A DNA stretch of 44,810 nucleotides from a virus (taxonomy: Duplodnaviria > Caudoviricetes). The translations under genes were made by a program, and so were the position numbers. Under the pieces are notes generated by a model. That model did no database searches, was not told where the DNA came from, and saw nothing but the letters and a program-made list of their open reading frames with translations. This document shows positions 2,256 to 43,404 of the stretch, in pieces. Position 1 is the first letter of the stretch, and the number at the start of each line of letters is the position of its first letter. Location: IMG/VR virus record IMGVR_UViG_3300008255_000028, positions 1-44,810 of that record; one strand, written 5' to 3'.

Positions 2256-2801
2256 ATGACATTATCGAAGAGCGAGAGATTATTTATCGACGCTTACGAC
2301 GGTGATGAGGTAAACGCTATGAGGGTAGCAGGATATATGGGTTCAGATAAATACCTCTCTCAGAAAGCAACTCAGTTATTGTCGAAGCCACAAATTGTAC
2401 AGGCGATCAAAGATCGAAGCCTATACATCGCTACGTCTAAAAAAGCCATAGCTGACAGAGAAGAACGACAGAAGCTTTGGACTGACATCATGAGGAATAA
2501 TGATCCTTATCACAAAGAAGAGTTCGACAGCAACGGGGTTCCTATTAAAGAAACAAATATTCCAATCGTCACCCGATTAAAAGCATCCGAGCTTCTTGGT
2601 AAGTCGGAGGCGGATTTTATCGATAAGCTTGACGTTCAACAGAATGTTACGATCACAGAGCTTATCAAACAATCATACTCAACGACTGACGACATCGATG
2701 CCATTGAGGCAGAGTATGAAGAACTCAGAGAGAAAAAAGAACTTCAGCAAAACATAACAATCGAAGACACAAGTACCAACTCCATCGAAGACTTTTTATA
2801 A
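2256..2801 (+). CDS. terS: Terminase small subunit
   Basis: N-terminal HTH (FIDAY...AGY...ATQLLSKPQIVQAI), RLKASELLGK motif, directly upstream of TerL. Confidence 0.9.
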   Translation: MTLSKSERLFIDAYDGDEVNAMRVAGYMGSDKYLSQKATQLLSKPQIVQAIKDRSLYIATSKKAIADREERQKLWTDIMRNNDPYHKEEFDSNGVPIKETNIPIVTRLKASELLGKSEADFIDKLDVQQNVTITELIKQSYSTTDDIDAIEAEYEELREKKELQQNITIEDTSTNSIEDFL

Positions 2802-9563: not shown

Positions 9564-9800
9564 ATGGAAACTGAAAAAAAGAAAGTACAAAGAAAGATTC
9601 AAAAAGTATCCATCGAAGCCGTAGCGGTCGACGATGGATATTATAAAGGGCAAATTATTCCTACAGGGAAGAAGTTCCTTTTTGAGGGTGTGACCAAGGA
9701 TGGTAAGCTCCCTTTATGGATTAAGGCTGCAAAAAAATCAGCTAAGAAAAAAGTAGAAATCGAAGAAGACGAAGAGTCAGACGTATCTGATCTTATCTAA
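9564..9800 (+). CDS. Hypothetical protein, 78 aa, ends VSDLI
   Basis: GAGGGG SD; in the morphogenesis operon. Confidence 0.75.
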   Translation: METEKKKVQRKIQKVSIEAVAVDDGYYKGQIIPTGKKFLFEGVTKDGKLPLWIKAAKKSAKKKVEIEEDEESDVSDLI

Positions 9801-13801: not shown

Positions 13802-15486
13802 TGGGACTCAGATCACCTCAAGAAATGGAAATAACGTCTGTTCAGCCACAAAGAGCAACACGTTTGCAAGGCGGAAGAACAGGGCAAATAGATCCTTCTT
13901 TCCTAAGAACATTAGAAAGTATTACTGAACAGCGTGAAAAAGAAAGACTTGAAGGGGCTAAGGCTTCAACAAAACTTGCCGAGGATATGGCAGAGCAGCA
14001 GATTAGAGAAAAAGAAATCGAAGCTAAAGCTAAAGCGGCGAGTACTCAGGGCTTAAACGCTTTACAAGAGACTTCTAAACAAAGAGAAGAACTTCTTAAA
14101 CAAGCAAATGATATTGTTTCCAAGATGCCTGTTGAACTCCAAGCAAAGATGCAGCCTAAGATTTTAAAGTCAGTAAACAATTTTAACGTTACAGCGATTC
14201 CTCACCAGTACGGAGAAATAGCTAAAGTTAGAGAACAGGTAGGTAAAGATAAAATCGTGGCAAGAAGAGATGATGCCATTGAAAGATCGGCGGATATGGA
14301 ATGGTTCTCCACTGAAGGGCTTAAAGACGTTGCAGACAGAGCGACTGAGTACGGTCGTTTAAAATATGGAAACGAAGCAAACGTCGATGTCGGAGGTCTT
14401 ACCGCAGGTGAAGCCATTCATGCTATCAGGAAAGAAGCTGTAGCTGAAACCGTCGTAGGCGCAATAGAAGTTCAAGCAAAGACCAACAGACTTTCTACGG
14501 CCCAAGAACTTTTTGCTAAACACGAAAAGGACTTAACTCCTGCCATGAAGGTTAAGGCGTTAAATATTCTTAAGAAAGCGGAAGTAGATACTGCCGACAA
14601 ACTTGGCTTGTCTTTTGCTGAAATGGCAATGAAACAATACCCTGAAGATATGGCCGCTCAAGAAGCGTTCATGAGGGCCAATGCTCCTAACGAAGATGTG
14701 TATAAGTCAGGCGTTGCTTTTGCTAAAAGTATTTCAGGTATCAAAGCACAACAGAAGAAATTTAATGATGAGAAAAACTTAGGTGAAGCTTTGGATGCGA
14801 TATCGAAGGGTCAACCGTTGACGGCTAAATCACTAGAGAATGTAGATCCTAAGTATCATGATAAGGTTAGAACATACGCTATTAATCAGGCGCAAGGGAA
14901 ATATAACCCAACAGACACAAGAGTATTTAATTCTCTTTTAAAACAAGTTCAAGACGATCCTGAAGGTTTTGCTACCAGCTTAAACCTAAGTGCATACGCT
15001 GCGGATCTTAACGAAGAAGACCAAAAGTTTTTTAAAAGAATTAAAACTAATTTAATCGAAGCAGGAAGAAAAGAAGACTTGAGAGTTTACAACAGAGGGA
15101 ACAGAGTGGCTAAAGACGTCACTTCTCAATTCCTAAACGCTAATAAAGTATTTAACCCCGGCCAGAGATCGAAGGTCGAGCTCGCAGTTTTTGATTACGT
15201 TTATGAGATGATCGGTAAAGGCGAAAGAGATGAGTCCAAGATAAGAAGATCTACACTTAAAGCCTTAAGAGACTTTGGATATAAAGAAGAAAAAAGAGAT
15301 ACTTGGTTTGGACTTAGTTCTGAAACTATTAAAACAGTATTACCTTCAGGATCTTTAAAAGGTGAAGTTCACCCTTCGATAATAAATAAAATTAAAACAA
15401 GGTACCCTAAAATGTCGGAGACTGAGATTCAGCAGGTAGTAAGTGATATGCAGAAAAACGGAATTGATATTTATTCTGAACAATAG
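13801..15486 (+). CDS. Internal virion (ejection) protein, helical
   Basis: 561-aa coiled-coil-rich protein; assigned by synteny. Confidence 0.65.
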   Translation: MGLRSPQEMEITSVQPQRATRLQGGRTGQIDPSFLRTLESITEQREKERLEGAKASTKLAEDMAEQQIREKEIEAKAKAASTQGLNALQETSKQREELLKQANDIVSKMPVELQAKMQPKILKSVNNFNVTAIPHQYGEIAKVREQVGKDKIVARRDDAIERSADMEWFSTEGLKDVADRATEYGRLKYGNEANVDVGGLTAGEAIHAIRKEAVAETVVGAIEVQAKTNRLSTAQELFAKHEKDLTPAMKVKALNILKKAEVDTADKLGLSFAEMAMKQYPEDMAAQEAFMRANAPNEDVYKSGVAFAKSISGIKAQQKKFNDEKNLGEALDAISKGQPLTAKSLENVDPKYHDKVRTYAINQAQGKYNPTDTRVFNSLLKQVQDDPEGFATSLNLSAYAADLNEEDQKFFKRIKTNLIEAGRKEDLRVYNRGNRVAKDVTSQFLNANKVFNPGQRSKVELAVFDYVYEMIGKGERDESKIRRSTLKALRDFGYKEEKRDTWFGLSSETIKTVLPSGSLKGEVHPSIINKIKTRYPKMSETEIQQVVSDMQKNGIDIYSEQ

Positions 15487-15494
15487 AGGGGAAC

Positions 15495-18400
15495 GTGGCA
15501 GGAATTACAAAACAAACTAAAGATTTTATTAAGAAGCACGAAGGCTTAAGACTTAAAAAGTATAAAGACTTTAATGGCAAATACGCCGTTGGGTATGGAG
15601 ATACATTAAACGTTAAAGATGAAATATCAGAGCAAGAAGCTGAAGAGCTTTTAGACAGAAGACTTTCACAAGGTTCTGAAGTAATTAACAAACATTTAAA
15701 ACGTGACATACCTCAAAACCAATATGATGTTCTTCTTGACCTTGAGTATAATTTAGGAGCCACTAAGCTTTTAAACTCAGGGCTAATCGACGTTGTTAAT
15801 AAAGGCAATATCGATGAGATAAAACTTGCAATAGGGAAATACACTAAAGCAACTAACGAAAAAGGACAGCTTGTCGAACTTCCTGCTTTAGTTAAAAGAT
15901 CACAAGATCGTTTAAAACTTTGGGGTGGAGCACTTACGACTGATAATACCGTAGACGCTTTCCTCGATAAATATGAACTTCCCGTTGTTCAAGGTCAGTC
16001 AAGCGTTGATTCATTTTTAGATAGCTATAAAAAAGAGGAGGTTCCATCTCCTGAGCAGCAAAGAGTCGCAGGACTTAATACGTCAGAGACACTTGCAGGG
16101 GATAAGCCTGAACTAGAATTTATTAAAAAAGCTAAGCAGCTTGCAAGAGAGGAAAGAATTTCTCAAGCTGATGCAGAAGCTATTCTTTTCGAGCGTGACT
16201 ACGGTTCAGCTAAAGTCGAAGCTCGTAAAGAAACACTAGCTAAAAAATACCCTGCCACTTCTAAATGGGCTTCAAAGCCTGAGAATTTTGAGGTGTTAAA
16301 GTCTTCTCCTGATAATGTGATGAAGATTGAAAACGTTTCTAAGAACTTATCGCCAAGCTATCTTGATGATCTTGGAACGGCAGTAAAGTCAAACATTTTT
16401 ATTTATCAAGAATCTTTTGCCCATATTGCAAACACACTAGGCATAATGGACGTAGATCAAACTGAAAAACTTTTAAATGAAATCGATCAGGAAAAACAGA
16501 AAGCTAAGTTTGTCACGTACCAAAAAGGCGTTGATAAAATAAACAAAGCAGGTCAGACACTTGAGGAAACTTACGGCGAAGGTTTTAATAAAATAGCTGA
16601 AGCATGGGACTCTTTGTTTTATAATCGTAACGATCAAATTGATAAATTAAAAAATGCTTATGATGGTTCAGAGGCAGCACTAAATAGTACCCTCGAATTT
16701 ATTACAACTGCTTTTCAAAATCCTAAAGAGTTTGGATTAGTGGGCGTTCAATCGGCAGGAACTTTTGTTTCTCCATACATCGGAGCCCTCGCAGGTGCGG
16801 CCGTAGGAACTCCTATTGGTATGACCGTTGCAGGCGCATCGGCAGGACAGCTTTTAGGCTCAGGTATTATAGGGTACGGATCGTACCTTCAAGAGCAGCT
16901 TGAAGAATTTAGAGATCCTAATACAGGTAAAATTGATTTAAAGAAAGCATACAGTGATCCTAACCGAGTTGCTAAGTGGAGATCTCAAGCCACTGTCTAT
17001 GGTATTTCACTTGCTCTTTTAGATAAGCTCTTCATGGGTAAAGCAGGTAAAGAAATTCTTAAGCCTGTAAGCGGTGATCTCGTAAAAAAGATTGCAGGTA
17101 AAACGGCTCAACTTGCTAAAGGTACAGTGACTCAAGCGGTAGGTGAAGGAGTCGGCGAGACAGGAGCAACTATTGCCGCCGATCTTACAGGTGTTCCTTT
17201 TGGTGACAAGATGACTTTTGAGAAAGTAGGTCGTGCAGTAGGTAAAGGCTTCGTAGAAGGAGCCGTATCTATTGTGACAGGTGGAATGGCAGAAGTCGGA
17301 GGAGCAGGCGTACGTAAAATTATTTCAAGTACAAATAAACAAGCGGCGGCAAAAACTGCCGATAGTGTAAAGAAAACTAATGAAGCGGTAGGAAGTTTAG
17401 AAACTTTAGCAGAAGTTCGAGAGATCGTAGAAAACGATCCTAACCTAAAAGAAAATCCTGACGCTGTAAAAGAGTTAATCGAAGAGTCAGTAAATCCTGA
17501 ACCGACTGACGTAGAAGAGTCAGATGTTTTTACTGAAGAATTAGACAACGATATTAAAGATGAAATTAAATTAATTGATAACGAGAAGAAAGGCTTCGTA
17601 TCCATCACGCCTTCAGAGTGGAACAAGTATCATATATCGAAGGGCATTGACCCTGCTGATGCCATAATGAATTTAGGTCCATTAGCGGCTGACCAATACA
17701 ATAGAAACAAAACAAGCGACACTAGCTTTTCAGTTCCCATATCTGATTGGGCCGTAGGAACTCTTAGCTCTCCTCCTGATATTAATCTAATACCTAGAGT
17801 GAACGGTAATGATCTTAATGCGGCTGAAGCTATTAAGACAGGACAGGACATTGAGAAAAACCCTTTAGTGTTTTTTAGCCAAGACGAATTACCTCCTACC
17901 CCTGAGCAAGAAGTAAAAGACGTTTCAGGTACACCAATCACAGAGCAGGTCATCGTCGAGGAGGATCAAGACCCCGAGGCTCCAACACTTAGACCCGTAA
18001 AACTTTATGGTAAGTTTAGAGATGCTTTAGAGAAAAAAGCTTTTGATAAAATTCGTAACCAACTTAAAGGTGCTTCAAAGGTAACTAAGAACATTTCACC
18101 TGAAGCCATCGATGTTGTCGCAGAATTACAGTTTAGACATTTAAGAGCTAGAGCAGAGATGCTTAACGTTCCTATATCTAAACTTGCTGACGATCTTGAT
18201 TTTGGTAAAATGATTAAGGCAAAGAGCAGAGGATCTTTTATTCCTGACCAAAGTTTAGCGAGTCCTTATGCTAAAGTTGTTTTAACTAAATCGGCCGACG
18301 AGACAACTGTTCTTCATGAGCTTGGACATTCGTGGCTCCATGATATGTGGGCGGATGCTCCATACATTAATGCTATTGCTGAAGATCAAATTACAGAACA

Positions 18401-23426: not shown

Positions 23427-25502
23427 ATGAAACAAGTATTTAACCCACTATCGGGATCTTTTGACCTTGTAGAGGATCAATCAGCAAAAATAAAATACAC
23501 CCCAACAGTCGAAGGCGACTTTGAAGCTCAACCAACTGAAGTAAAATCTGCATTAGATCAAATCGCATCAAGAAAAAATCCTCTTGATATTTTTGTGCAA
23601 TTACAAGCAAGAGAAGATTTAGGTGATTGGTCAACTGGAGATAATGCGACCTTTCTTGGCGGGGGTACATTAGCAGGGACATTTGAAAAAGAAACATCGT
23701 CGCCACTAAACGGTGTAGCATCTTATAAATACACTCAAGCAGCAAGCTCTCTTGACGACTACATTGCCTCGCCTTCTCAGCCAGTACCTTTAAGATTTAG
23801 AGGTCAAACTTGCAGTATTAATTTTCCATTTAATTACAATGGTTCAAACTCAGACATTAACCTAGTTATTTACGACGATACAAATAACGTCGAGCTTTAC
23901 AATCAACCAATCGAAGCAACGAACGGTGGAAATAAGATTCTTAAAGCTAATTTTATAATGCCATTAACTTGCGCTAATTTAATTGTAGGCTTTCATGTTA
24001 AAGTATTAGACTCAGGAAAGATTTTAAACTTCGACGATATTCAAGTAAGTGACGACACTTTAAAGTACACTGACATTTCTAATATTTCTGAATGGCAAAG
24101 CTATACTCCAACCTTTGCAGGGTTCGGAACGGTTTCTACTTCAAACATGGCATGGAGAAAAGTGGGAGCAAATATAGAGGTTAGAGGTAGATTTACAACA
24201 GGAACGCCTACAGCAACAGAGGCGAGAATTAGCTTTCCGCTGAATTATTTATCTATCTCTAATATAACAAACCCTAATATAGTTGGCGTTTTTGCAAAAT
24301 CAACAGGACCGTTTAGTGGTTCATTTAACGTATTAACAGAGCCATCTGTGGGGTATTTTACATTTGGCATTTCTGGTGCATCAAATACGGGGTTAACAAA
24401 GTTAAATGGAAACGGGTTTATCGTAGCGGGAGAAGATGTTTCATTGTTTGCATCTATTCCAATAGCAGGACTTCTCGCTAACTCCCCGTCAATCATAACC
24501 CCGATTGAATCATTCTCATCAGACACAGCGCAATTTACTTACGCTGGTTCATCTCAGTACACGCTTGCTACATTGCCAAACTCACCGATTGGAACTTTTA
24601 TAACTGGAACTTATGCGGCAAGCACAAACACTCTAACTCAAACAAATGCGGCTCCACCAACTCAAACAGTAGCCGACATGAACGTGAATGGAATTAGAGT
24701 GTTTAGTAGGGCTTACAATGCTGCATCGACTTCTGGTAATCCAGCTTACATAGCTATTAATATAGGAAAAGGATTTAAGGGGCATCAGCTAAGTTTGTAC
24801 AAAAGCGTAGGTAAGGCCACTTCTGGAAGTCTTGACTACATGATACAGTCTACCAATTCGTATCAAACAGGGGTCGATCTTAAGGGCTATAATGAGGCTA
24901 CGGGTATATTTTTAATTGATCTAGGATACAAAAGAAATACCACTATAACGTCACACGATTTAAGCTTTGAAGATCGCACTCAGCAAACTGACGGCTATCT
25001 CGTAATCAACGCTAGCAAATCTCCTGCGCTTGTCGGAGTGCCTGAGTTAATTCCAAGGATTGCGACGATAAGCGATGTTAAGGCAAGCGGTTCTTTTGGT
25101 GGAACATTTACAAGCGGTTCATATCAAACAAGAGTACTAAATACCTTAGACGATCCGACCGGAATAGTGACATCTCTTACCTCTAACCAGTTTATTCTTC
25201 CAATCGGAGAATATAATTTTGAAATTTTTGGTACTGCTTATAGAGTGGGAATACATAAACTAAAGCTTAGAAATATAACAGACTCAACAGATGCTTTAAT
25301 TGGATCAACTCAAGTTTCGGGAACTGCTGATTCAACTACAAGTGTATCTTATGTTAGCGGCAAGGTGGTTCTTGCGGCTCCAAAAACTTTTGAGCTTCAA
25401 CACAGATGCACCACAACGGTTGCAACAAACGGATTCGGGGATGCAGCAGCGTTTGGAGACACAGAAAGGTATTCAGAAATTACAATTACAAAAGTTAAAT
25501 AA
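23427..25502 (+). CDS. Tail fibre / receptor-binding protein
   Basis: S/T/G-rich beta domains, WQSYTPT motif, followed by a chaperone-like gene. Confidence 0.75.
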   Translation: MKQVFNPLSGSFDLVEDQSAKIKYTPTVEGDFEAQPTEVKSALDQIASRKNPLDIFVQLQAREDLGDWSTGDNATFLGGGTLAGTFEKETSSPLNGVASYKYTQAASSLDDYIASPSQPVPLRFRGQTCSINFPFNYNGSNSDINLVIYDDTNNVELYNQPIEATNGGNKILKANFIMPLTCANLIVGFHVKVLDSGKILNFDDIQVSDDTLKYTDISNISEWQSYTPTFAGFGTVSTSNMAWRKVGANIEVRGRFTTGTPTATEARISFPLNYLSISNITNPNIVGVFAKSTGPFSGSFNVLTEPSVGYFTFGISGASNTGLTKLNGNGFIVAGEDVSLFASIPIAGLLANSPSIITPIESFSSDTAQFTYAGSSQYTLATLPNSPIGTFITGTYAASTNTLTQTNAAPPTQTVADMNVNGIRVFSRAYNAASTSGNPAYIAINIGKGFKGHQLSLYKSVGKATSGSLDYMIQSTNSYQTGVDLKGYNEATGIFLIDLGYKRNTTITSHDLSFEDRTQQTDGYLVINASKSPALVGVPELIPRIATISDVKASGSFGGTFTSGSYQTRVLNTLDDPTGIVTSLTSNQFILPIGEYNFEIFGTAYRVGIHKLKLRNITDSTDALIGSTQVSGTADSTTSVSYVSGKVVLAAPKTFELQHRCTTTVATNGFGDAAAFGDTERYSEITITKVK

Positions 25503-25511
25503 GGAACGATT

Positions 25512-26120
25512 ATGATTATAGAATTGTTATCACAAAAAGGTTTCGTTGAAGGTGTGGACTTTTCCTTAGAAAACGACACACTAACAGCATTACCCAAGAC
25601 TAGAATGGTCGATCAAGAAATCGAGCATCCTGCCGTAGAGGAAGTTTTAGGAGCTGAAGGAGATGTAATTACTCCTGCACAAGAGGCATACACTGAGACA
25701 ATACAAGTCGAAGAAACATATTACGAGGAACTTCCAAGCCTTGATTCATTAAAGTTTGAAGCCGTAAAGAACAATGATGCGGCAATGGTCATTAATGAAT
25801 TTTTAAAAGGAAAGCAAATTGCAGAAGATGACTCTATAAACATCGATCTTTTTTTATCAGGCGATCAAAGCGGTTGGAGATTTACTAATATCGTTGCACC
25901 AACGGCATCAGAGCTTTTCGATCTAATATCCCTTTCTCAACAAACCAAAAGCCAATTAGAAATAAATGCAGAAGCAAAAGCCTTCTTAAGTGGAAGTGAC
26001 TGGAAAATTCTTAGACACCGAGATCAACTCGAAATGAATATTCCAACAAGTTTAACAAGCATTGAATACGATAATTTATTAGTTCAAAGGCAAGAAGCTA
26101 GAGACAGCATACAGGAGTAG
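25512..26120 (+). CDS. Tail fibre assembly chaperone-like protein
   Basis: C-terminal A.AFL..SDW...R.....RQEAR motif. Confidence 0.65.
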   Translation: MIIELLSQKGFVEGVDFSLENDTLTALPKTRMVDQEIEHPAVEEVLGAEGDVITPAQEAYTETIQVEETYYEELPSLDSLKFEAVKNNDAAMVINEFLKGKQIAEDDSINIDLFLSGDQSGWRFTNIVAPTASELFDLISLSQQTKSQLEINAEAKAFLSGSDWKILRHRDQLEMNIPTSLTSIEYDNLLVQRQEARDSIQE

Positions 26121-31043: not shown

Positions 31044-33104
31044 CTAGATAAAAGCGTCCAATGGGTTGTCAAATTTTCTCTTCCATTTATTTCTTTTCTT
31101 AACAGGATCAAAGTCCTGATAGCACCCTAAAGAAAAGAAAGCTTTCTCAATACGATAGTAAATCTGTTGCGTATAGTTCTTAGAAAGAAATCCTGTACCG
31201 ACTAGATATTGAAAGGCGTCAGAAGTTGTCCACTCGGATCCGAAGAAGTCGAGGGCATTTGCCAACGGTTCTCTTAAAGGATCTTCTTGATACTTAGGTG
31301 CAACGACTTGCTCTAAAAGATGATGAGGCATTTTATAAAACTCATAGCCTTCACGAAAGTAATGAACTCCCTCCGCAAATAGTTGGGCCCTATTCATCTT
31401 GATAGAATTAAGATCGATGTGTCGTGCACTCCTTGGAATTTTTACCGGCCAGAACCTTCGCTCTCCCATATCGTACTCAAGATATTTTGTACTGTTAGTT
31501 GTTCCAATGAAAACAAAACTTCTCAAATTCTTCACTGATCTCTTAGCAAAGAGTCCTCTAATGTCGTCGAATCTTTTTGATAGTACGTTCTTAACCTGCT
31601 CAGACTCTTGACCTATGACACCGATAAGTTCAGGCAACTCAACCACAACGGCTTGGTGCATTTGTCTTAAGTCATCAAGGTTCTGGAAAGCCTTAGCTTG
31701 GAAAGGTGCGTATGTATATTCACCTCCTATAACCTCGACGAGTGATGATTTCCTTATGCCTTCATGCCCTTCGATAACTACCATACTGTCAAACTTACAG
31801 CCTGCTTCAAGTCCTCTTGCTGCTAAGGCAGTCCAAAGATTCTTGCCTACGATCCTTATGTACTCAGAGTCTTCGACTCCACAATACTTAACAAAGAACT
31901 CTTCGATTCTAGGTACTCCGTCCCATATAGCTTTAGATAAAAACTCTTTATGAGGGTCAACGGTTCTTGAAGTCATAGCGATCTCAAGACCTGCAACGAT
32001 TGTTTGTTTTCTAAACTTCTCTAATGATAAGCCATCGAAGCCCTGAATTATTGGAATGATTTGATTTACGATCTCTGTATCCGAACATGACTTTCCTTTA
32101 AAGACGTAGTGTCCACTTCTAACGTCAGTGTATAGTTCCTCTTTAGAAAAGATAGCACATATAATTTTAGAGGCGTTAGTTTCTGATGGCTCTATTCTTA
32201 TTGATCCATCTTTCCCCCAACCGATAGGAATCTTAGATCGGTCTAATATTTCTTGAGGTGAGAAGGGGAAAGCTTCACCGTCTTTAACGATAGTTGTGTC
32301 GTGGGCTTTAAGTATTGCGAGTATTGTTCCCGGCCCTACGTTTCCTTGTCGACTTGCTCTGTCTACAATGTCCTTAGCTTTGAACTCATCGCCGACTTGG
32401 TACGATTTATTAAAGGTCCAAAGTAAAGTAAGGTCGTCGAGTGTTTCAGGATCTTCGACTCCTGCTTTCAACGAGAACAATCCGTCTCTCCACTCAGAGT
32501 ATGAGAGTGCTAAGTTTGGACAGATGTACTGCATCTTTTCTTTAATGAATTTAATCTGCTCAGCCGAGAAGGGTTTATGAAGTTCAAGACTTGTGACACT
32601 TGATGAATCAAACTCTTTTACGGGCGCATGGTTTTTGACTTGATGTATGTGCATCATGAGTGAAGGCGGAGCTACCTGTATGCGAGCAACATCAAGGGCG
32701 TAAACGCTATAGCCTTGAGAAGGGGGAGCACCTACCCAACCGTTATACTTTAAGTCCACGCCTTTAGCTAACTGAGAAGGCGGAGAAAAGCTTTCAGGAT
32801 TAATAGAGTCGGGGAGTTTAAAGTAATAATGAAAGCCACCGCTTGGGGATCTTACGGTGTACGTTTCAGGGATACTATTCTCTTTACTGAAAAGGCTCCA
32901 CCATTCACGTCCGTCGTGCTGATGGCTTGGACCTTCGACGTCGACGTCGACGATTATTAAACCGTTCTGTTTCGCAGGAATCCCTATGCACTCAACGCCT
33001 CTTTGGCATAGGTCTCTATAACTGAAAGTGCTAACCACGTTGTCACTATAGTCGTGGGAAATTTTTGTACCTTTAACAAATCGAATAGCTTGTAAGTCTT
33101 TCAT
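31044..33104 (-). CDS. Primase-polymerase / PriCT / VirE(VapE)-type helicase fusion
   Basis: IVDVD and SPSGGFHYYF; YSEW; GHEGIRKS; GTTN...ERRFWPV. Confidence 0.9.
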   Translation of the reverse strand: MKDLQAIRFVKGTKISHDYSDNVVSTFSYRDLCQRGVECIGIPAKQNGLIIVDVDVEGPSHQHDGREWWSLFSKENSIPETYTVRSPSGGFHYYFKLPDSINPESFSPPSQLAKGVDLKYNGWVGAPPSQGYSVYALDVARIQVAPPSLMMHIHQVKNHAPVKEFDSSSVTSLELHKPFSAEQIKFIKEKMQYICPNLALSYSEWRDGLFSLKAGVEDPETLDDLTLLWTFNKSYQVGDEFKAKDIVDRASRQGNVGPGTILAILKAHDTTIVKDGEAFPFSPQEILDRSKIPIGWGKDGSIRIEPSETNASKIICAIFSKEELYTDVRSGHYVFKGKSCSDTEIVNQIIPIIQGFDGLSLEKFRKQTIVAGLEIAMTSRTVDPHKEFLSKAIWDGVPRIEEFFVKYCGVEDSEYIRIVGKNLWTALAARGLEAGCKFDSMVVIEGHEGIRKSSLVEVIGGEYTYAPFQAKAFQNLDDLRQMHQAVVVELPELIGVIGQESEQVKNVLSKRFDDIRGLFAKRSVKNLRSFVFIGTTNSTKYLEYDMGERRFWPVKIPRSARHIDLNSIKMNRAQLFAEGVHYFREGYEFYKMPHHLLEQVVAPKYQEDPLREPLANALDFFGSEWTTSDAFQYLVGTGFLSKNYTQQIYYRIEKAFFSLGCYQDFDPVKKRNKWKRKFDNPLDAFI

Positions 33105-33124
33105 GTGTCACCTTTTAAGACTGA

Positions 33125-33634
33125 TTAAATAAAATCCGCAAGCGGTGTTTTGGTTTCCTCTATTTGTTTAAATGGGGATTCAACTTCTTCCCACTCAACG
33201 GCTATGGCTTCGCTCTGCTTTACAACAGTGTCGAGATGTCTAGTCGTTGATTGTTTTTGGAGAAGAGGACGAAGGCCGTACGCCACCTCAAGAAGGGTGA
33301 CAAACTTCTCAAAGGGAAGTACGGCCATAGCCTCCATTCTGATTCCTTTCGTTATCAGAACAGGAATATCATTATCGGTTTGAGTTCTAACTTCATTGAT
33401 TGTACTTACCGAACAATAGTTCTGATGGTTCTTACACTGAATGAGAAACGGCCATGTGCCTTCGATGTCCACGCCTATCACATTCGATGCCTGATACTCT
33501 AACATTCGCTGAGCTTCAGGGAATATATGGGCTAAAGCATTTGCGATGTCACGCTCGAATTGCTTTCCTTTCTTAATGCCGTTGACTTTCTTTTTCGGTT
33601 TATTAGATGAAGTCGTTAATGTCTTGTTGCCCAC
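33125..33634 (-). CDS. Holliday junction resolvase-like PD-(D/E)XK nuclease
   Basis: KGKQFERDIA...VDI.....IQCK. Confidence 0.8.
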   Translation of the reverse strand: MGNKTLTTSSNKPKKKVNGIKKGKQFERDIANALAHIFPEAQRMLEYQASNVIGVDIEGTWPFLIQCKNHQNYCSVSTINEVRTQTDNDIPVLITKGIRMEAMAVLPFEKFVTLLEVAYGLRPLLQKQSTTRHLDTVVKQSEAIAVEWEEVESPFKQIEETKTPLADFI

Positions 33635-33869
33635 TATGATCCTCCTTAATGTGCTTTATCAAGTCAGTGATGTCTATCCCTAGATGATCAATCATCCATA
33701 ACACTTGATGAAAATAAAAACTGTTCCCCTCTTCAATACTTTGAATAGTATTAAACTGTTCACCTGCTTTAGCGGCAAGCTGCGAGACAGTAATCTTCCT
33801 ATGTTCTCTCGCAACGGTCAAATACCTTCCGACCTTTTTGTATAAACTATTTCGTGATTCCTTAATCAT
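33603..33869 (-). CDS. XRE-type HTH DNA-binding protein
   Basis: AREHRKITVSQLAAKAG...TIQSIEEG. Confidence 0.8.
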   Translation of the reverse strand: MIKESRNSLYKKVGRYLTVAREHRKITVSQLAAKAGEQFNTIQSIEEGNSFYFHQVLWMIDHLGIDITDLIKHIKEDHSGQQDINDFI

Positions 33870-35836
33870 TTCAAATACCTCACTCCATTTTTAAAGTCTG
33901 CGCCAATTTTCATATCGCACCATGATGGATTAACAGTCATTAGTTTATTAAATTCCTCGCCTCTATTAGGTTCAGCCTGTGCCCATATCTCATCATGAAC
34001 AGTATTTAAAACATCGAAGCCTGCGTTCTCTAATCTCCACATGGCAGGGAGAAGTATATCCCTCGACGTTGCAGAAACAATATGTTCAGTAAGGAGTCCA
34101 CCGTAAACAGTCTTGATTCCATACACTCCCTTATCGTCGCCTTCATACGCAAGAACGAAACGATCTTTCCACGCTCCTGTATTAGGATCTTGGAATTGTT
34201 CTTTCCTCATGTGAGCGTGATGATAGTAAAGGTATGAGCCTGAAGGTAATCTAATCATGACACCTTTATGAGGAGCCATCATAGGGCCTACAATAATTCT
34301 ATTGTTACAAACGGCAACAGTCTGCCCCTGTATCGCCGATCTAAAAGCGTTCTCTAATGTGCTCCAAAGATTTACGATCTTAGGGTTTGCCATGCGATAC
34401 CCATACACGGCTTTCTTTGCTTCTTCTAATGGAAGCTTAACGCCTGATTGCTTTTCAATCTGCAACTTAAATTTGTCAGGTCCGCACCCATAACCACAAC
34501 TCAAGGCTGCGGTCTTACCGACTTGTCGTTCGACAGAATCTTTTCCTATCTGATCAGGAGACATAGAGTAAATGGCGGCGGCTGTTTCCTCGTACCATGT
34601 CTTAGGTATTGGACCTAAATCTAAAAGCCAAAACAAAGTCGACGGCTCAACTTTAGAGAAGTCACCACAAAGAAACTCTAAGCCTTCATCGGGAATCCAT
34701 ATACGTCTTAAAAGATTTCTTACAAAACCAATAGGGTCTTTGAGGTGAGGTCTTTTAATTCTTACAAAGTCGGCGAGGTTTGTGACATTCAAATTAAAGT
34801 CAAGCTTATCTTCTTTAGTGTCATCAACTCTTGGAAAGTTGTGAACTTGTATGCCTCGACCTGCCCAGCGTTTAGTCTGAGCGTAGTGGTACGATAGAAT
34901 ATTATAGATCCGCCCATTAAGTTTTTGAGATAGTGCGGTGGAAAGTTTTACGATTGAGGTGGACCCTGCCAAAGATTTAATCTCGATGGCACGTTTAACG
35001 TGAGCAGGTACAGGCGTTGTGTCTTCTAGGAGTTTGTCAACGGTGTCAGACTGCATGTTTTCAAGCCAAGGATACCACTCTTTAAGCCAATCTTTTAATT
35101 TAGGAGAGTTCATTTTTACTTGGAAGCTTACACACTGATCGAACTCAGCGATAAGTTTAGGAAGGTTCTCAGATACAATAGAGGAGAGTTCGTTAAGAAG
35201 ATCCTCATCAAGTCTGAGTCCTCTCATGTTACGCTTAAATGTCCACTCCCAAGCCCAACGTTCAGTAGATGAAAGTCGAGGACATGAATAATAAACATCT
35301 CTAAGCAGTCGGGTATCTGTCTTACCATAGAAAGAAAAACGTTTCCATTCCTCTTCAGTAAGCTCAGGGAATACGCCTTTAGAATTAGGCTTACATTGCT
35401 TAAGCATGATCCTTCGACCTTCAGGGTCTTTACCATACGGAAGCCTTAGAACCTTAGCGGCCGTATCAAGTGCGCCACCTACTCTAAAGTGAGCAGTGAT
35501 GGCAGCGTTATCTTCAAGGTCGTCGATTGATGGACGAACCATTCCTTTAATTAGTTTTGAGAAAACATTAATCCATATCATGTAATCGAAGCCAATGTTG
35601 TGAGCGATCATCCTGTACTTATGCGGATTGTATGCAACATCAAGAACTTCATAAGGTATTGACTGACCTTTACGCCATTCATTTACTACGCCTGTTCTAC
35701 CAAAGCACCAAGTTAAAAGAGTTGCTTCAGTCGAGGGATGAGTGGAGTAAACGGCAGAGCCAACAAGCTTTAAGTCTGCACGACTTCTTGTTTCAAAATC
35801 AAAAAAGAAATCGGTTTTATAGTGCATGGTAGCCAC
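33866..35836 (-). CDS. polA: DNA polymerase family A with 3'-5' exonuclease
   Basis: DFET and AHN..FD; motif A DFSKVE; motif B RQVGKTAALSCGYG; motif C VHDE. Confidence 0.95.
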   Translation of the reverse strand: MATMHYKTDFFFDFETRSRADLKLVGSAVYSTHPSTEATLLTWCFGRTGVVNEWRKGQSIPYEVLDVAYNPHKYRMIAHNIGFDYMIWINVFSKLIKGMVRPSIDDLEDNAAITAHFRVGGALDTAAKVLRLPYGKDPEGRRIMLKQCKPNSKGVFPELTEEEWKRFSFYGKTDTRLLRDVYYSCPRLSSTERWAWEWTFKRNMRGLRLDEDLLNELSSIVSENLPKLIAEFDQCVSFQVKMNSPKLKDWLKEWYPWLENMQSDTVDKLLEDTTPVPAHVKRAIEIKSLAGSTSIVKLSTALSQKLNGRIYNILSYHYAQTKRWAGRGIQVHNFPRVDDTKEDKLDFNLNVTNLADFVRIKRPHLKDPIGFVRNLLRRIWIPDEGLEFLCGDFSKVEPSTLFWLLDLGPIPKTWYEETAAAIYSMSPDQIGKDSVERQVGKTAALSCGYGCGPDKFKLQIEKQSGVKLPLEEAKKAVYGYRMANPKIVNLWSTLENAFRSAIQGQTVAVCNNRIIVGPMMAPHKGVMIRLPSGSYLYYHHAHMRKEQFQDPNTGAWKDRFVLAYEGDDKGVYGIKTVYGGLLTEHIVSATSRDILLPAMWRLENAGFDVLNTVHDEIWAQAEPNRGEEFNKLMTVNPSWCDMKIGADFKNGVRYLK

Positions 35837-36062
35837 TTGATATTACGGCTTTAAGTCTTTCAATCTCATCTTTTAATTTCTTAAAGGTAGAAGGGATGAG
35901 AACATCAATCTCCATTGGAGCTTCGATGTTTAGGTATATCTGATTCGATGTAGTCTTAGCCCAATCAACGGTAATCTTTGCGTGGTATCCGTTAACCTTA
36001 AGAACTAAAGGTTCATGTTTTTCAGCGTGGTTTTTATGGAATGTAGCTTTTACGTTGCTCAC
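35817..36062 (-). CDS. Divergent CsrA/RsmA-like protein
   Basis: NQIYLNIEAPMEIDV parallels CsrA NQVRIGVNAPKEVSV; GTG start after AGGAGG. Confidence 0.5.
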   Translation of the reverse strand: MSNVKATFHKNHAEKHEPLVLKVNGYHAKITVDWAKTTSNQIYLNIEAPMEIDVLIPSTFKKLKDEIERLKAVISSGYHAL

Positions 36063-36081
36063 TGTTCCTCCTATGGAAATA

Positions 36082-36103
36082 GAGGGAGCCTTGCGACTCC
36101 CTC
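36082..36103 (-). terminator. Stable hairpin (terminator, attenuator or processing site)
   Basis: GAGGGAGTC-GCAA-GGCTCCCTC followed by TATTT on the - strand. Confidence 0.65.
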
Positions 36104-36109
36104 GTTAAG

Positions 36110-36571
36110 TTAAATAAAAGACGGGGACTCTTGAACCGCAGGCTTTTTGCCTTTAAGTCCAATGACTTTCTCTTGGAATAAAGGAATGAAAATATTAATC
36201 TGCTCTTGATTAAGCTGACTGATCTTCACGCCTTTAGGTAAACCTGCGATGTCGTAGATCTCGGCGAGGTGTTGAGCAATCTCTGCACCTTCAATCTTTA
36301 ATGCTGTAAGTTGAGCTAACTCTTCAGTCACTAACTTAATAGCATCAGGGATTGCAATGTGAAACTTAGGTTCCTCAATGACTTCAACTTCTTCTACAAC
36401 AGGGGCAGGAGCCGCTTTGGCTTTTGCCTTAGAAGCTTTAGGCTTTTCTTCCTTAACTTCTTCAACTTTAGTTTCCTCTACTGAAATAGTAGAAAGAGTT
36501 TGTGCACCTAAAGTCACAACAAAATCTTTTAATTCTTCTGCATTCTTAAACTCGATTGATAGCTTAAACAT
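36110..36571 (-). CDS. Hypothetical replication-module protein
   Basis: AGGAG SD; E/K/A-rich linker; ends SPSFI. Confidence 0.8.
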   Translation of the reverse strand: MFKLSIEFKNAEELKDFVVTLGAQTLSTISVEETKVEEVKEEKPKASKAKAKAAPAPVVEEVEVIEEPKFHIAIPDAIKLVTEELAQLTALKIEGAEIAQHLAEIYDIAGLPKGVKISQLNQEQINIFIPLFQEKVIGLKGKKPAVQESPSFI

Positions 36572-36582
36572 GTGGTCTCTCC

Positions 36583-37191
36583 TTAAATAAATCCGCCGCC
36601 GTTAGACGAAGGCGTTGATGGTGTTGGGTTCATGTCCTGTACGAATGATCCGAATATCTGATCAACGTTTACTGCGCCTGATCCTACTTCTCTTTCTCCA
36701 CCATTCATTAACATGATGGCATTAAAGTTTACGCCAAGACCTTTCTTTTCTTTATCAATATTAAAGAATGAAATATTAATCACAGCATTTCTGCCTGAGT
36801 AAACTTCAGCCTCACTGATAACAGGCTGTCTTGATTGGTCAACGACTGGTGGTGGAAACTCTGCACCTGACTGAGCGTTTACCCAGTAGCATCCTTGAAG
36901 AAAAGAAGCATTAGGCTTACCGTCTTGACGAACATAAGAGTCAAACTTTTTCATCGGGTTCACAAAGTATTGCATTGGAACTGAAGGGTGAAAAATTGTC
37001 TTAGCGTTCATAAGAAAGTTATTAAGGTCGTGCATAACTTTCTCATTAGATCCTACTTTCCACGCAAACATTGTGTTAAATGTAGATCTTCCGTTCTTGT
37101 TAGTCGTTGGCTTTAAAATGTTTGGATAAAAAATCCTCCCTTCTAAAGTAAATGACTTCCTCCAAAAATCTTTGGCTTCTTGTGCGTTCAT
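36583..37191 (-). CDS. ssDNA-binding protein (DUF2815 / T7 gp2.5-like)
   Basis: GRIFYP, P.VVD, EVYSG.....I.F....KKGLG..FN motifs. Confidence 0.85.
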   Translation of the reverse strand: MNAQEAKDFWRKSFTLEGRIFYPNILKPTTNKNGRSTFNTMFAWKVGSNEKVMHDLNNFLMNAKTIFHPSVPMQYFVNPMKKFDSYVRQDGKPNASFLQGCYWVNAQSGAEFPPPVVDQSRQPVISEAEVYSGRNAVINISFFNIDKEKKGLGVNFNAIMLMNGGEREVGSGAVNVDQIFGSFVQDMNPTPSTPSSNGGGFI

Positions 37192-38468
37192 ACTTCCTCC
37201 TTGCCCTCTTCAGAGCGGTTAATTATAGAGCCGAATACGGCCATCTCTCCGAGAACTGAACGTATCTTCTCATCGAGAACTTTGATTTCTTTTTTAATGG
37301 GTCTAGTACATACAAGATTTAACTTCTCTTTGCCTACTAACTTCTCAAGTTTAGCAAGCGTCTTGATCTTAGTGGTCGTCACTGTCTCACTAACCTCGAC
37401 GTTGGGGAAGTGCGTTTTCAAAAGTTTCTCTTGCTCTTCAAAACCTTCACCATTTATTTTTCTATTGCCTATTTTATCGACGACCATTAAGCCTTCGATT
37501 GACTCACCATTACTCATACGGTACAGGAACTCTTGCTCCGCATCTTCCGCCACACTTTTAATTAAAGGGAATAAAGAAATGATCTTCATCATGGCTTCAT
37601 CTCTTTTAGGCGTTGATACTTGGTTATTTAAAATCACGCTTGGCATGTTCATGTCAGAAAGAAACTTACCAAAATTTTCTTGCGCTAACTTTAAAGGCTT
37701 CTCAAGTATCACAGGACATTTAAGTTTAACGTTGTTAGTTCTTCTAGCAGGACACCAAAAACAATGAGATCCTTCAATTGCTTCAGCATTAACTTCACTT
37801 GATTTCTGTATAGCTTGCTCAATCTGTTTCAAAAAGTCGGCAAGGTCTGATCCCATATAGCTAGTATGTTTCGGAGCCTCTTCCGTTCTTGGTTGATAAA
37901 CAACTGCATGAAAGAGATAGTCTTCAGGTATATTAGTTAAGTGCTTAAAGATCCCTGATAAATAAACTTTCAATTGTAGTGACGTTGCGCTTACGTTCTT
38001 TCCTTTCCCATGTTTATAATCAATAACGGCTGCGCCTTTTGTGCCCACGATTAAACAGTCGGCAGTACCAAAACACCCTTGTTCAGCAAAGACAGGGATG
38101 CCTTTCTCTAAACCAAACCATAAAACCTCGCCGATATTTATCTGATCATTAAGCCATGAAGATAGAACGTAGTAATACCCTTGGGCACATGACATCATCT
38201 CAAGCCCTTGATCAGTGAGCATTGCCATCTTTAAGTTTAAGTCGTTAGGAAATGGAATATCGTAGAACTCTTTTCTAAAGAAAGCTTCGCAAACAGAGTG
38301 AGCAAGTGTGCCCTCTTCAGCATAGACTGAAGTCTCTTCAGGAATATTTTGTATTAGGCGACGTCTAGCAGGGCAAGCAAGCCAAGCGTCTGCGGCTGAA
38401 GGCGAAAAGGTTGAGTGTGCTGACGGTCTAACAAAGTTTGTTAGCGCAGGTAAAATTTTAATTGTCAT
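37188..38468 (-). CDS. DUF2800 Cas4-like PD-(D/E)XK exonuclease
   Basis: HS.FSPSAA..W..CP, EEGTLAH, FGTAD, IDYKHG, QL..Y and HCFWCPA; ATG at 38468 has a GAGGGG SD (ORF-track start 38513). Confidence 0.88.
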   Translation of the reverse strand: MTIKILPALTNFVRPSAHSTFSPSAADAWLACPARRRLIQNIPEETSVYAEEGTLAHSVCEAFFRKEFYDIPFPNDLNLKMAMLTDQGLEMMSCAQGYYYVLSSWLNDQINIGEVLWFGLEKGIPVFAEQGCFGTADCLIVGTKGAAVIDYKHGKGKNVSATSLQLKVYLSGIFKHLTNIPEDYLFHAVVYQPRTEEAPKHTSYMGSDLADFLKQIEQAIQKSSEVNAEAIEGSHCFWCPARRTNNVKLKCPVILEKPLKLAQENFGKFLSDMNMPSVILNNQVSTPKRDEAMMKIISLFPLIKSVAEDAEQEFLYRMSNGESIEGLMVVDKIGNRKINGEGFEEQEKLLKTHFPNVEVSETVTTTKIKTLAKLEKLVGKEKLNLVCTRPIKKEIKVLDEKIRSVLGEMAVFGSIINRSEEGKEEV

Positions 38469-38496
38469 GGTCCCCTCGATTGTTATGGTCTTCGTT

Positions 38497-39822
38497 TTAA
38501 ATAAAAGAGTCAAGCCCTAATTTACTATTGGAAAGCATTAAGGCTTCGACTGTGCTTGTCGCTTCTTCCTTTCGTCGTATCATGCTTAAAAGTCTTGAGT
38601 CGTTTTCTCCTGATGTTAAAAAATAGTGAAGTGTTCTTTTTGTTTGCCCTGATCTTCTTGTCCTTGCCATCGCTTGCTTAATCCCTGCATCATGCCAAAA
38701 CCAACCATGGTACAAACTTATGTGAGCGTTCTGAAGGTTAAGACTTTCGGACCCTGCTCGAAAACTCATTGCGATCACCCTGACTTTACCGTCTTGAAAT
38801 TTTTTCAGGTTGACTGCACGTTCTCCACCTGACTCTGCACCTGTAATAAGTACAACGTCTTTAGGATGCTTATCCCTTAAGTTTCTTAAAGGTTCAACGT
38901 AATTAGAAAAGACGACTAACTGACTTGATCCTGTGGTTAAGAAATCTGCCACCCAATTTAAAAGATAAGGAGTCTTTGCCCTTGATAGCCTTTCAAGCAA
39001 TGCCATATAGGCTTCAGGCTCCTCGATGTTTGCATCTTTTAAAAGAGCATCATCATCAAGCCCTAGATTAATATGAATCTCTTCTTTATCAGGAAGATCA
39101 ATACAATCTTCTGAACGTCTATAATGAGTCAATGGCTTCATGACCTCCATTAGTTTATCTTCATTCGCCACGCCTTCATAAGAAGATCCTGACTGCTCAC
39201 GTCCATATTTCTTTTTCCATGTCTTCGTTTTCTTATTTGTGTAAAGCTTTTTCCAGTTCTCAAAACGCTTAAGATCTAAAACACGTTCCGCACTATCAAC
39301 GATATTAGTCGTCGAGCACAGTGCCCACGTCGTATAAAGTTCGGCTGCACTGTTTGGCATAGGTGTTCCTGTAAGCATGATAAGTTTACCATGTTCAAAT
39401 CTTCCACCTTGAGTACCTAACGCCACTAAGAAATTACAAAGAACTTTTGCCCTGTCGGTTTCCGGTGACTTTAAGTAATGAGATTCGTCGAATATGATCA
39501 TCCTTACGTCAACGTATCTAAGCATATTAGTCGCCTTCGATAGTTGTGAATAGGGATAAACGATCATGTCCTTATAAATGTCAGGCGTCTGTTTATGGCA
39601 CTCAACTTTCCAAGTCGGAACGGCAGATTTAGGCAGAATGATTATAAACTTAGGTGCCATAACGCCTTTCTTTCTTAGGTTCGCTAAGTGTTCTCTTGCA
39701 AGCCACAAAGAAGATAATGATTTTCCAAGACCCATTTCATGCCACAAGAACGTACCGATATAGGGGTTCTTTCTAAAAAACTCCATGGCTTCAGATTGGT
39801 GTTTCCTTGGTTTATAAATCAT
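38497..39822 (-). CDS. SNF2-like SF2 helicase
   Basis: MGLGKS, DESH, LTGTP, SLNLQ and QAMAR..RSGQ motifs. Confidence 0.92.
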   Translation of the reverse strand: MIYKPRKHQSEAMEFFRKNPYIGTFLWHEMGLGKSLSSLWLAREHLANLRKKGVMAPKFIIILPKSAVPTWKVECHKQTPDIYKDMIVYPYSQLSKATNMLRYVDVRMIIFDESHYLKSPETDRAKVLCNFLVALGTQGGRFEHGKLIMLTGTPMPNSAAELYTTWALCSTTNIVDSAERVLDLKRFENWKKLYTNKKTKTWKKKYGREQSGSSYEGVANEDKLMEVMKPLTHYRRSEDCIDLPDKEEIHINLGLDDDALLKDANIEEPEAYMALLERLSRAKTPYLLNWVADFLTTGSSQLVVFSNYVEPLRNLRDKHPKDVVLITGAESGGERAVNLKKFQDGKVRVIAMSFRAGSESLNLQNAHISLYHGWFWHDAGIKQAMARTRRSGQTKRTLHYFLTSGENDSRLLSMIRRKEEATSTVEALMLSNSKLGLDSFI

Positions 39823-40319
39823 TTAATCTTCTCCGACGTGTAGTAAAGAGAGTCGATGTTTTCTCTTGCCCACGCAGCCGCTTGATCCCCCAAGAAATAA
39901 GGAACTGATAGCCTTCGAGTTTTTGTTTTTCTAAAGGGATGGGAGTATCCGCAAGGTTTGTGACAAAATTCGTGGACAGCATTGCCTACCCACATTGGGA
40001 AATCTTTTGCAATAGGTACAAAACGTCTCATATTGATTTCATACCCTTCAGATGTTGTTTGCCCTATTACTGAAGACCATGGGTTTCTTGGTCTAAACGG
40101 AGACACTAAGGCAAAAAGTCTATCGTCCTCATCGTACACTTTTACATTTTGTCTAATAATATTATAAACCTTTTCGCTTGTGTCATCGGTGTAAGCAAAC
40201 TTCTCAACTTTCTTTATGAACTCAAGTTCGTTCAGAAGAAATCTTTCAGCCGCTTTGCACACTCCTGTCATGTACCAATACGTTGTGTTATTAAATCTTT
40301 TACTAAGTGAATAAATCAT
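39819..40319 (-). CDS. Putative zinc metallopeptidase
   Basis: HEFCH...GYSH motif. Confidence 0.6.
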   Translation of the reverse strand: MIYSLSKRFNNTTYWYMTGVCKAAERFLLNELEFIKKVEKFAYTDDTSEKVYNIIRQNVKVYDEDDRLFALVSPFRPRNPWSSVIGQTTSEGYEINMRRFVPIAKDFPMWVGNAVHEFCHKPCGYSHPFRKTKTRRLSVPYFLGDQAAAWARENIDSLYYTSEKIK

Positions 40320-40359
40320 TTCATCTCCTCCCGTATATTTTTTAAATACTCATTAACTC

Positions 40360-40572
40360 TTATGTTTTTATTGCAAAGTTTACAGTATGCTCCGTATCGA
40401 GTGCATATATAATCATGATTGCAAGTTCTTTGCTCTTCTTTTTGTATACCCGAAGTTCTTTTATATACTTTCGTCTCTTGCTGTATCTTTTAATGTCCCT
40501 TAAAAGATCATTAAACCCTCCGAGAATGAGTCCTAGAACAACCGCTAGGCAGCTAACGATTAATTCTTTCAT
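40360..40572 (-). CDS. Small membrane protein
   Basis: N-terminal hydrophobic helix, basic tail. Confidence 0.6.
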   Translation of the reverse strand: MKELIVSCLAVVLGLILGGFNDLLRDIKRYSKRRKYIKELRVYKKKSKELAIMIIYALDTEHTVNFAIKT

Positions 40573-42847: not shown

Positions 42848-43404
42848 TTTTTAAGCTCCTTCGATATAAATTTTAACACTTTTTCATAAAGCTCTTTATC
42901 AAGATAAGAAAACTCAATATTATTGTTTTCAGTATAGACTTTAATATATCCACGTTTTCCAACGCTTAAAGATCCGTAAGACGATCCCATGCCAAAACCT
43001 AGCGACCTTAAAAACTCAATACGATTGTTTGTTTTGTTATTAAATTCTCTATGATCATTCACACGCTCTTTAATAATGTCTAGTGCCTTAGTGGCTTCAG
43101 GAGTGAATAGTATGCGTCTTTGAATATCAGAGGCTATTTTGTCTAATGCTTTATCAGGATTAAAACAGATGTCAATCGTCGCCTCTTTGCCGTAGTATAC
43201 GTCTTGATGTCTCACGCCTTCGATGTCATGGGCAGGATGCAATTGAGCAAAGCCTTTATTGCCTCTATATCCAGTAAAGCGTACAAAAAGCCATTGAAAG
43301 TCGTTGACCTTCATACTTAAGCCATATTCAAAATTTCTGTTTTTTATTATTGGAAGATTTAAAAGATCCGAGAGTTTTTTGCCGTCGAGTGTTCGATCAT
43401 TCAT
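42844..43404 (-). CDS. Hypothetical protein
   Basis: AGGAGGT SD; 186 aa. Confidence 0.8.
   Translation of the reverse strand: MNDRTLDGKKLSDLLNLPIIKNRNFEYGLSMKVNDFQWLFVRFTGYRGNKGFAQLHPAHDIEGVRHQDVYYGKEATIDICFNPDKALDKIASDIQRRILFTPEATKALDIIKERVNDHREFNNKTNNRIEFLRSLGFGMGSSYGSLSVGKRGYIKVYTENNNIEFSYLDKELYEKVLKFISKELKK

Follow-up and report, generated by a model that had tools for sequence, protein, structure and literature searches.

Why would a primase-helicase, a nuclease, a small terminase subunit and several proteins of no recognisable family end in almost the same few residues? The question is raised by the virus record IMGVR_UViG_3300008255_000028 (Duplodnaviria; Caudoviricetes), which was analysed in its entirety (44,810 bases, hereafter the window). 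An initial annotation had pointed out a hydrophobic C-terminal tail shared by nine proteins, six of them encoded by nine consecutive genes of the replication operon (39822 to 31044), and all nine endings are present where they had been described. The tail is restricted to non-virion proteins, is conserved at the protein level, is absent from the phage's family A DNA polymerase (PolA) and changes its penultimate residue in step across the genes of one genome. We infer from this that it likely binds a partner, that the partner is likely a single receptor, and that PolA is its likeliest identity.

A conserved tail on unrelated proteins

The proposed enrichment of the ending in the window holds: among 52 hand-picked genes, seven end in Phe-Ile (FI), where the frequency of the dipeptide inside the proteins predicts 0.15 (binomial p 2e-10), and none of 200,000 random draws gave any terminal dipeptide seven times (the maximum of six was reached 14 times). 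The wider pattern [LIV](D.|.D)[FL][IL] ends seven of the 52 genes versus 0.08 expected (p 3e-12), a value to be read as indicative, the pattern having been picked post hoc.

The clade to which the phage belongs was found by locus scans (PolA identity 42-72%). Thirteen related records were taken (12 near complete; one, G009, about half), and their open reading frames (ORFs) were clustered with those of the window, giving 14 records. Five families constitute what is here called class A: an SF2 helicase (14 orthologues), the primase-helicase (14), the terminase small subunit (TerS, 13), a resolvase-like nuclease (13) and a helix-turn-helix (HTH) protein (7). As had been anticipated, the tail is kept in these relatives: a hydrophobic pair closes every one of the 61 class A orthologues, 57 of which match Phi-x-x-Phi-[IVL] or Phi-x-x-[LM]-[GN]-L (Phi, hydrophobic residue). 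The shared tag of the initial annotation therefore stands, but its wording as "xxFI" does not, since the motif of the clade is Phi-[DE]-x-[FL]-[IV], with the variant Phi-x-x-L-G-L; counted position by position, the tails read Phi(L,I)-[D,S,E]-[D,S,T,N]-[F,L]-[I,V]. The tail is located 12-199 residues past the last conserved column, on a variable linker. It is found in 13/13 resolvase orthologues (behind a linker of 32-199 residues), in 7/7 HTH orthologues and in 13/13 TerS orthologues.

Among in-clade TerS homologues of the protein database, 82 of 84 carry the tail (the window's own TerS and duplicates of fetched records being counted), with the consensus [ST][LI][ED]D[LF]I or xxLGL, as compared to two of 36 weaker matches, both LGL-type and probably clade fragments. 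The helicase motif is present in 12/14 in-clade cluster representatives versus 15/134 outside the clade, where the natural last helix sometimes yields the pattern, and at 152 distant DUF2800 loci the motif ends 29 of 2894 ORFs (1.0%). Within the clade, it is absent from PolA (0/14 records), in agreement with the initial annotation, and from the terminase large subunit (TerL) and virion proteins (0/146), and it occurs in one of 14 DUF2800 exonucleases; in the window, PolA ends in GVRYLK and DUF2800 in GKEEV.

The nine proteins had been treated as one set, which does not hold for the single-stranded DNA-binding protein (SSB), a 153-residue protein and a 78-residue protein (class B). Their ending is looser and shorter ([GSP]-F-[IV], x-L-V, sometimes PY) and mostly outside the F/L switch described below, with a hydrophobic pair in 26 of 33 orthologues and the full motif in six. 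F[IV] ends 9/10 orthologues of the 153-residue protein, and L[IV] or IV ends 9/9 orthologues of the 78-residue protein. The SSB linker is P/Q/N/G-rich and uncharged in the clade. SSB linkers also contain repeated NPF, SPF or DPF, and a stretch EE[VI][EQ]SP[FY] lies inside the resolvase linker (window 33125-33200) and inside the linkers of the 153-residue protein in relatives (L209:8928-9425; L210:5968-6489; L216:9802-10329); together these are possibly a second short motif.

Conservation acts on residues and not on nucleotides, as the initial annotation had supposed. The tails draw on all synonymous codons and all three stops, and TTTATYTA is present in 10 of the 61. When two non-homologous genes in a genome have the same residue at a given position of the tail, they encode it by the same codon in 100 of 272 cases, codon usage predicting 101.2, and copying of tail DNA is therefore excluded. 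In the HTH gene, the tail is maintained within the overlap with the resolvase ORF, and in 8/14 records the primase-helicase keeps its tail with no same-strand gene within the following 700 nucleotides. A DNA or RNA signal at gene ends (a ribosome-binding or enhancer sequence, an ATGA overlap or a copied repeat) is highly improbable given this variety of codons, and so is chance, given the frequency at distant loci. ATGA overlaps do end some tails, constraining the last codon, and the acidic codons in G006 and G011 could double as a Shine-Dalgarno sequence; overlaps of this kind may shape some last codons, but cannot account for the rest. Copying of tail DNA, a ribosome-binding or overlap artefact, and composition bias are all rejected.

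Some core proteins of the clade deviate in length. The DUF2800 exonuclease of G010 and G011 (L233:4145-4987, L238:17610-18452) has 280 residues, is about 140 C-terminal residues short and has the looser end NALV. PolA of G010 and G012 (912 residues), TerL of G003 (859 residues) and some helicases (777-803 residues) are 250-350 residues longer than their orthologues; this extra length (L235:17254-19992, L240:9321-12059, L214:7497-10076, L273) likely represents inteins.

A genome-wide switch of the penultimate residue

The spelling of the tail differs between genomes. G000, G003, G005, G008, G012 and G013 have an aromatic penultimate residue; that of G001, G002 and G004 is aliphatic, as it mostly is in G006, G007 and G009, while G010 and G011 have LGL; in G009, the -4 residue has moved to Y/F in several genes. 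The class of the penultimate residue is concordant in 97 of 106 within-genome pairs, as compared to a null mean of 42 (0 of 100,000 permutations), relatedness being only partly corrected for in this test; with the set thinned to 10 records, 61 of 70 pairs are concordant versus 31 under the null. Accessory ORFs on the replication strand follow the same rule: 18 of 320 carry the motif versus 2.5 expected, 16 of them in the spelling of their own genome, and both exceptions are equivalents of the 153-residue protein. Among the accessory proteins so tagged are HNH nucleases, one HTH protein, a small protein containing a hydrophobic segment, and members of at least two small families. Separately, an 85-residue ORF of G012 (L014:1144-1401, + strand) ends in DDIPF, which we take to resemble the tip of bacterial SSB and which might be a mimic of the host SSB.

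In a tree of 3,519 columns, L-type G006 and F-type G003 are sisters (support 0.999) within a group that also holds F-type G000 and G005, whereas G001/G002/G004 stand beside aromatic G013, and G007 beside F-type G008 and G012; the L-type records (G001/G002/G004, G006, G009 and partly G007) do not form one clade. The helicase tree also places G006 apart from G001/G002/G004, which makes a simple exchange of modules less likely. That the genes switch in step, and have done so repeatedly on the tree, speaks for one receptor that co-evolves with the tails. The common hub proposed by the initial annotation is thereby strengthened.

Candidate receptors and alternative roles

An end peptide on a flexible linker, present in unrelated folds and changing in step, looks like the ligand of a single pocket, and the tail is likely a docking ligand of some partner. 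In the reading preferred here, the five-residue acidic-hydrophobic peptide, which follows a flexible linker whose length varies, would dock in a single common pocket, the likeliest site being the family A polymerase of the phage itself, and would tether helicases, resolvase, HTH regulator and TerS to the replication fork. This proposal, which draws on sequence comparison, is tentative. PolA is the first candidate because it is the sole core replication protein that is never tagged, and because the tails of distant DUF2800 modules, in which SSB and primase often end in acidic DDFL- or DDDL-like residues, match the arrangement of phage T7. Moreover, a spelling that is specific to the genome and changes fast would suit a receptor encoded by the phage more than a conserved pocket of the host. 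PolA has many conserved K/R columns, and none of the solved structures is a close relative (best match E 3e-7). Its residues 542-564 hold a variable insertion of 9-36 residues, rich in charged residues, ahead of conserved Tyr564, with K/R at position 559 in 15 of 18 sequences; this region is a place to look for a putative tail-binding patch.

In T7, the acidic tails at the C termini of gp2.5 (SSB) and gp4 (primase-helicase) dock on a basic patch at the front of gp5 (PMC5686142, PMC12339929, bioRxiv 10.64898/2026.05.20.726333). Like T7, the window combines a tail-less family A polymerase with a gp2.5-type SSB and a primase-helicase that have hydrophobic tips on flexible linkers. Unlike in T7, the primase-helicase is of the Prim-Pol/VapE and not of the gp4 type, the tail is also found on the resolvase, the second helicase, the HTH protein, TerS and accessory proteins, and a hydrophobic pair plus a hydrophobic -4 residue, with I/V/L as the last residue, takes the place of the lone Phe; in addition, the tails are weakly acidic, and their spelling switches genome-wide. 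The T7 precedent, which had been invoked from the start, is weak for the SSB in particular, the tail of which is non-acidic (mean net charge of the last 15 residues -0.07, as compared to -1.29 in the primase-helicase).

Several observations, along with the partial correction for relatedness, weigh against PolA or against a single pocket. With a net charge between just -1.3 and -3.2, and a neutral SSB, the tails differ from the long acidic runs of T7. In neither PolA (16 sequences) nor SSB (12) does any alignment column separate the F-type from the L-type records; the five non-tail columns that did separate them in a first covariation scan (in portal, tail protein, DUF2800, primase and TerS, including TerS 145/149) are discounted because relatedness explains such matches. 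The switch also has exceptions: the primase-helicase keeps F in G006 and G007, the resolvase keeps F in G009, and the 153-residue and 78-residue proteins have F and L, respectively, almost throughout. Tails outside the switch make two receptors possible. Finally, an analogous tail exists in Vibrio phages whose polymerase is unrelated, and there a host clamp is favoured.

These Vibrio phages are part of a set of 13 cultured or annotated records with a related polymerase or capsid, two of which were read in part (35 of 63 kb, 33 of 58 kb); in 11 of the 13, so covered, no comparable tail set was found on DNA-handling genes. In phages 1.021.A and MZH0603, however, F[LFMIV] ends 6 of 50 and 5 of 55 ORFs versus 0.5 expected (one MZH0603 match is likely a false ORF), and the tail, [DE]-[VI]-[SN]-F-[LFM] or PSFF, is found on TerS, an SNF2 helicase, DUF2800 and extra DNA enzymes, and in an SSB-like ending. 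No description of this Vibrio tail was found in the papers searched. The two phages share with the clade the head-gene family (capsid 49%), the tail on TerS, SNF2 helicase and extra DNA enzymes, the SSB-like ending, and the lack of a tail at the end of the polymerase. They differ in that the tail has another register and is also on DUF2800 and not on the primase, and in that the polymerase (phrog_1252) is unrelated to the PolA of the window (hhalign probability 0.8%). The Vibrio polymerase has an internal QIDLF/QVDLF clamp motif, and a clamp is therefore a plausible receptor there. Two proteins of Ralstonia phage RpY1, one HTH-like and the other TerS, end in DIFS (L387:14105-14587, 15937-16503), which resembles the DLF core of the Mu C and Mor clamp motifs.

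For the clade of the window, the host beta clamp (DnaN) is the second candidate after PolA, though a doubtful one. It would bind the tail as a clamp motif lacking Gln and serve helicases, nuclease, HTH regulator and TerS as a tool belt, much like it serves Mu C in late transcription. A polymerase is normally the chief client of a clamp, but a beta-clamp (CBM5, CBM6), PIP or T4 motif is present in 0/18 PolA sequences. Neither a clamp nor a loader gene was found among the 53 window proteins compared with PHROGs or among the core families of the 14 records, unassigned ORFs having had no fold search. Subsite I of the clamp accepts [L/M] followed by [F/L/I], adjacent or after one spacer, and exchanging a terminal LGL for LF is without effect, Gln not being essential (PMC11139829). 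The clade has both forms (xxLI/xxFI and xxLGL, xxMNL), and the adjacent and spaced hydrophobic pairs of its tails fit this subsite, the bacterial clamp motifs being Q-phi-x-[LM]-[FL] and Q-phi-x-[LM]-x-[FL]. Against this, Gln occupies motif position 1 in 2/61 tails, position 2 is mostly D/E/S instead of aliphatic, and the Phe that F-type tails have at position 4 falls outside the consensus as given. The pocket is also highly conserved (PMC11139829), which is a poor fit to the F/L switch unless the latter tracks host changes. Mu C and Mor offer a precedent for use of the host clamp, Mor through DLF alone (PMC12867686), and the analogous Vibrio tails are in clamp register, next to a polymerase with an internal clamp motif.

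The TerS consensus resembles the LDFL/LDFLF motif of the T4 gp45 clamp (PMC9690074, PMC6212786), the partners of which (gp43, gp33, gp55, ligase) are, as here, unrelated proteins, including transcription factors, with a short acidic-hydrophobic C-terminal helix shape. The clade differs from T4 in that no clamp or loader gene was found, in that the T4 motif is absent from PolA (0/18), and in that its tails have two consecutive hydrophobic residues in place of three. The PCNA PIP-box, Qxx[IL]xxFF, has the same Phi-x-x-Phi-Phi spacing, and the HTH tail of the window reads QxxIxxFI; however, Gln is at -7 in 2/61 tails, the last residue is I/V/L, the host is bacterial and a PCNA-like gene is missing. 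On the conserved Gln, which 2/61 tails have, the PIP-box motif and the beta-clamp motif both fail.

Another phage protein, such as the SSB through its OB-fold cleft, DUF2800, or TerL and portal, is an unlikely receptor, and the two classes of tails may have two receptors. Enc34 and T7 SSBs have acidic tails (PMC5686142); the SSB of the clade, unlike these, has an uncharged linker and has lost its own acidic tail, and class B tails ignore the F/L switch. SSB, DUF2800 and head genes are also what the clade and the Vibrio analogues have in common. On the other hand, the SSB and sometimes DUF2800 are themselves tailed, no SSB column covaries, and tails are still present in G010 and G011, where DUF2800 lacks its C-terminal 140 residues. 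The tail might instead be a degron or adaptor tag that renders non-virion DNA-binding proteins short-lived, which seems less likely still. Nonpolar C termini mark substrates of Tsp and FtsH, the carriers are non-virion proteins only, and the spelling could follow host proteases. Yet a fixed hydrophobic -4 residue and acidic -2/-3 residues exceed the needs of such a degron, and acidic residues near the C terminus usually stabilise. Moreover, the tail is on the primase-helicase and TerS, which are needed throughout replication and packaging, and is missing from PolA and from most small early proteins (18/320 accessory ORFs). Binding to some other host protein (an RNA polymerase surface, helicase, chaperone or membrane anchor) is improbable: acidic Phi-x-x-Phi-Phi helices are a generic docking shape and HNH nucleases, an HTH protein and a small hydrophobic-segment protein are among the tagged accessories, but no positive evidence singles out any one target.

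Gene content and implications

The window encodes a podophage head and tail cluster, epsilon15/BPP-1-like, and an amidase endolysin, according to Pfam and PHROGs searches with the window proteins; the host is a bacterium, given this endolysin. The leftward replication operon comprises the helicase (phrog_62), the DUF2800 exonuclease, the Enc34/gp2.5-type SSB, 153-residue and 81-residue orphans, PolA, the Cro-type HTH protein, the resolvase-like nuclease and the Prim-Pol/VapE primase-helicase (Table 1). The best matches among cultured phages are distant (PolA 31%; capsid 49%, Vibrio phages). Searches of GTDB genomes with PolA, primase and helicase profiles revealed no in-clade prophage, a DUF2800 search gave matches at 24-33% only, and homologues of a 274-residue early protein came without informative host name.

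Table 1. Tail-bearing genes of the window, tail-less genes of the same operon, and loci of two Vibrio phages (aa, amino acids)
Feature	Position	Strand	Assignment and C-terminal end
Orphan protein, 193 aa	452..1033	-	Tail ...TVTDFI; tail codons and stop 452-469
Terminase small subunit (TerS)	2256..2801	+	phrog_51, E 1e-12; tail ...NSIEDFL (2784-2801)
78-aa protein, head-gene cluster	9564..9800	+	Looser tail ...DVSDLI (9783-9800)
Prim-Pol/VapE primase-helicase	31044..33104	-	PF09250, PF05272; tail ...PLDAFI (31044-31061); last gene of operon
PD-(D/E)XK Holliday-junction resolvase-like nuclease	33125..33634	-	phrog_244, E 5e-13; tail ...PLADFI (33125-33142)
Cro/C1-type HTH protein	33603..33869	-	HTH_26, E 3.5e-4; tail ...QDINDFI (33603-33620)
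Family A DNA polymerase (PolA)	33866..35836	-	PF00476, phrog_17; tail-less; candidate receptor
153-aa protein	36110..36571	-	Looser tail ...SPSFI (36110-36127)
Enc34/T7 gp2.5-type SSB	36583..37191	-	PF10991, phrog_112; non-acidic linker, looser tail ...GGGFI (36583-36600)
DUF2800 exonuclease	37188..38513	-	PF10926; tail-less in window
SF2 helicase	38497..39822	-	phrog_62, E 2.5e-57; tail ...GLDSFI (38497-38514)
Loci of Vibrio phages 1.021.A and MZH0603 (shared tail; internal clamp motif of the polymerase)	L392:115-1064, 24344-25840, 31564-34395, 42914-43372; L393:9398-11545, 15439-16935, 38518-40546

The helicase is presumably of the SNF2 type, a label taken from the initial annotation and from known sequence motifs. 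Three tail-bearing proteins are without assignment. The 193-residue protein has no PHROG match, no usable Atlas match and no homologue in the 13 relatives, and its derivation as a copy of the C-terminal domain of the primase is unsupported (E 9). The 78-residue protein matches no family in Pfam or PHROGs. The same is true of the 153-residue protein, for which the Atlas gave no usable family; it consists of a small N-terminal segment, a low-complexity linker and a helical C-terminal domain. Elsewhere in the window, the 81-residue ORF before PolA (35817-36062, - strand) has a weak CsrA-like match below cut-off (PF02599, E 0.03) and is a possible translational regulator. The long intergenic stretch before TerS (1034-2255) contains an AT-rich part, three 16-nucleotide and three 20-nucleotide direct repeats and inverted repeats (1695-1714/1818-1837), and is a candidate origin or packaging region.

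The tail belongs with known C-terminal docking motifs, and what is new is the genome-wide co-switch of its penultimate residue; a literature search that rested on listings and the beginnings of abstracts turned up no account of a tail that the replication and packaging proteins of a whole clade share and that switches in step. Known phage docking tails serve two or three partners (T7 polymerase, T4 clamp), whereas here five unrelated core families and accessory genes are involved, including the small terminase. It is possible, if rather speculative on present sequence data, that the phage has a clamp-free tool belt, in which one peptide pocket of the polymerase would receive matching C-terminal plugs on helicases, resolvase, regulator, TerS and recently gained accessory genes. 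The fork would then be linked to recombination, to late gene control and to the onset of packaging, and pocket and plugs would drift together as a genome-specific code. If so, replication and packaging modules of related phages would be incompatible, and a barrier to module exchange between them is predicted. The spelling switches provide natural matched and mismatched peptide-receptor pairs with which to find the receptor, and the analogous tail in cultured Vibrio phages offers a laboratory test system. The tail thus gives a handle on the coupling of replication and packaging in the widespread DUF2800-SSB-PolA module.

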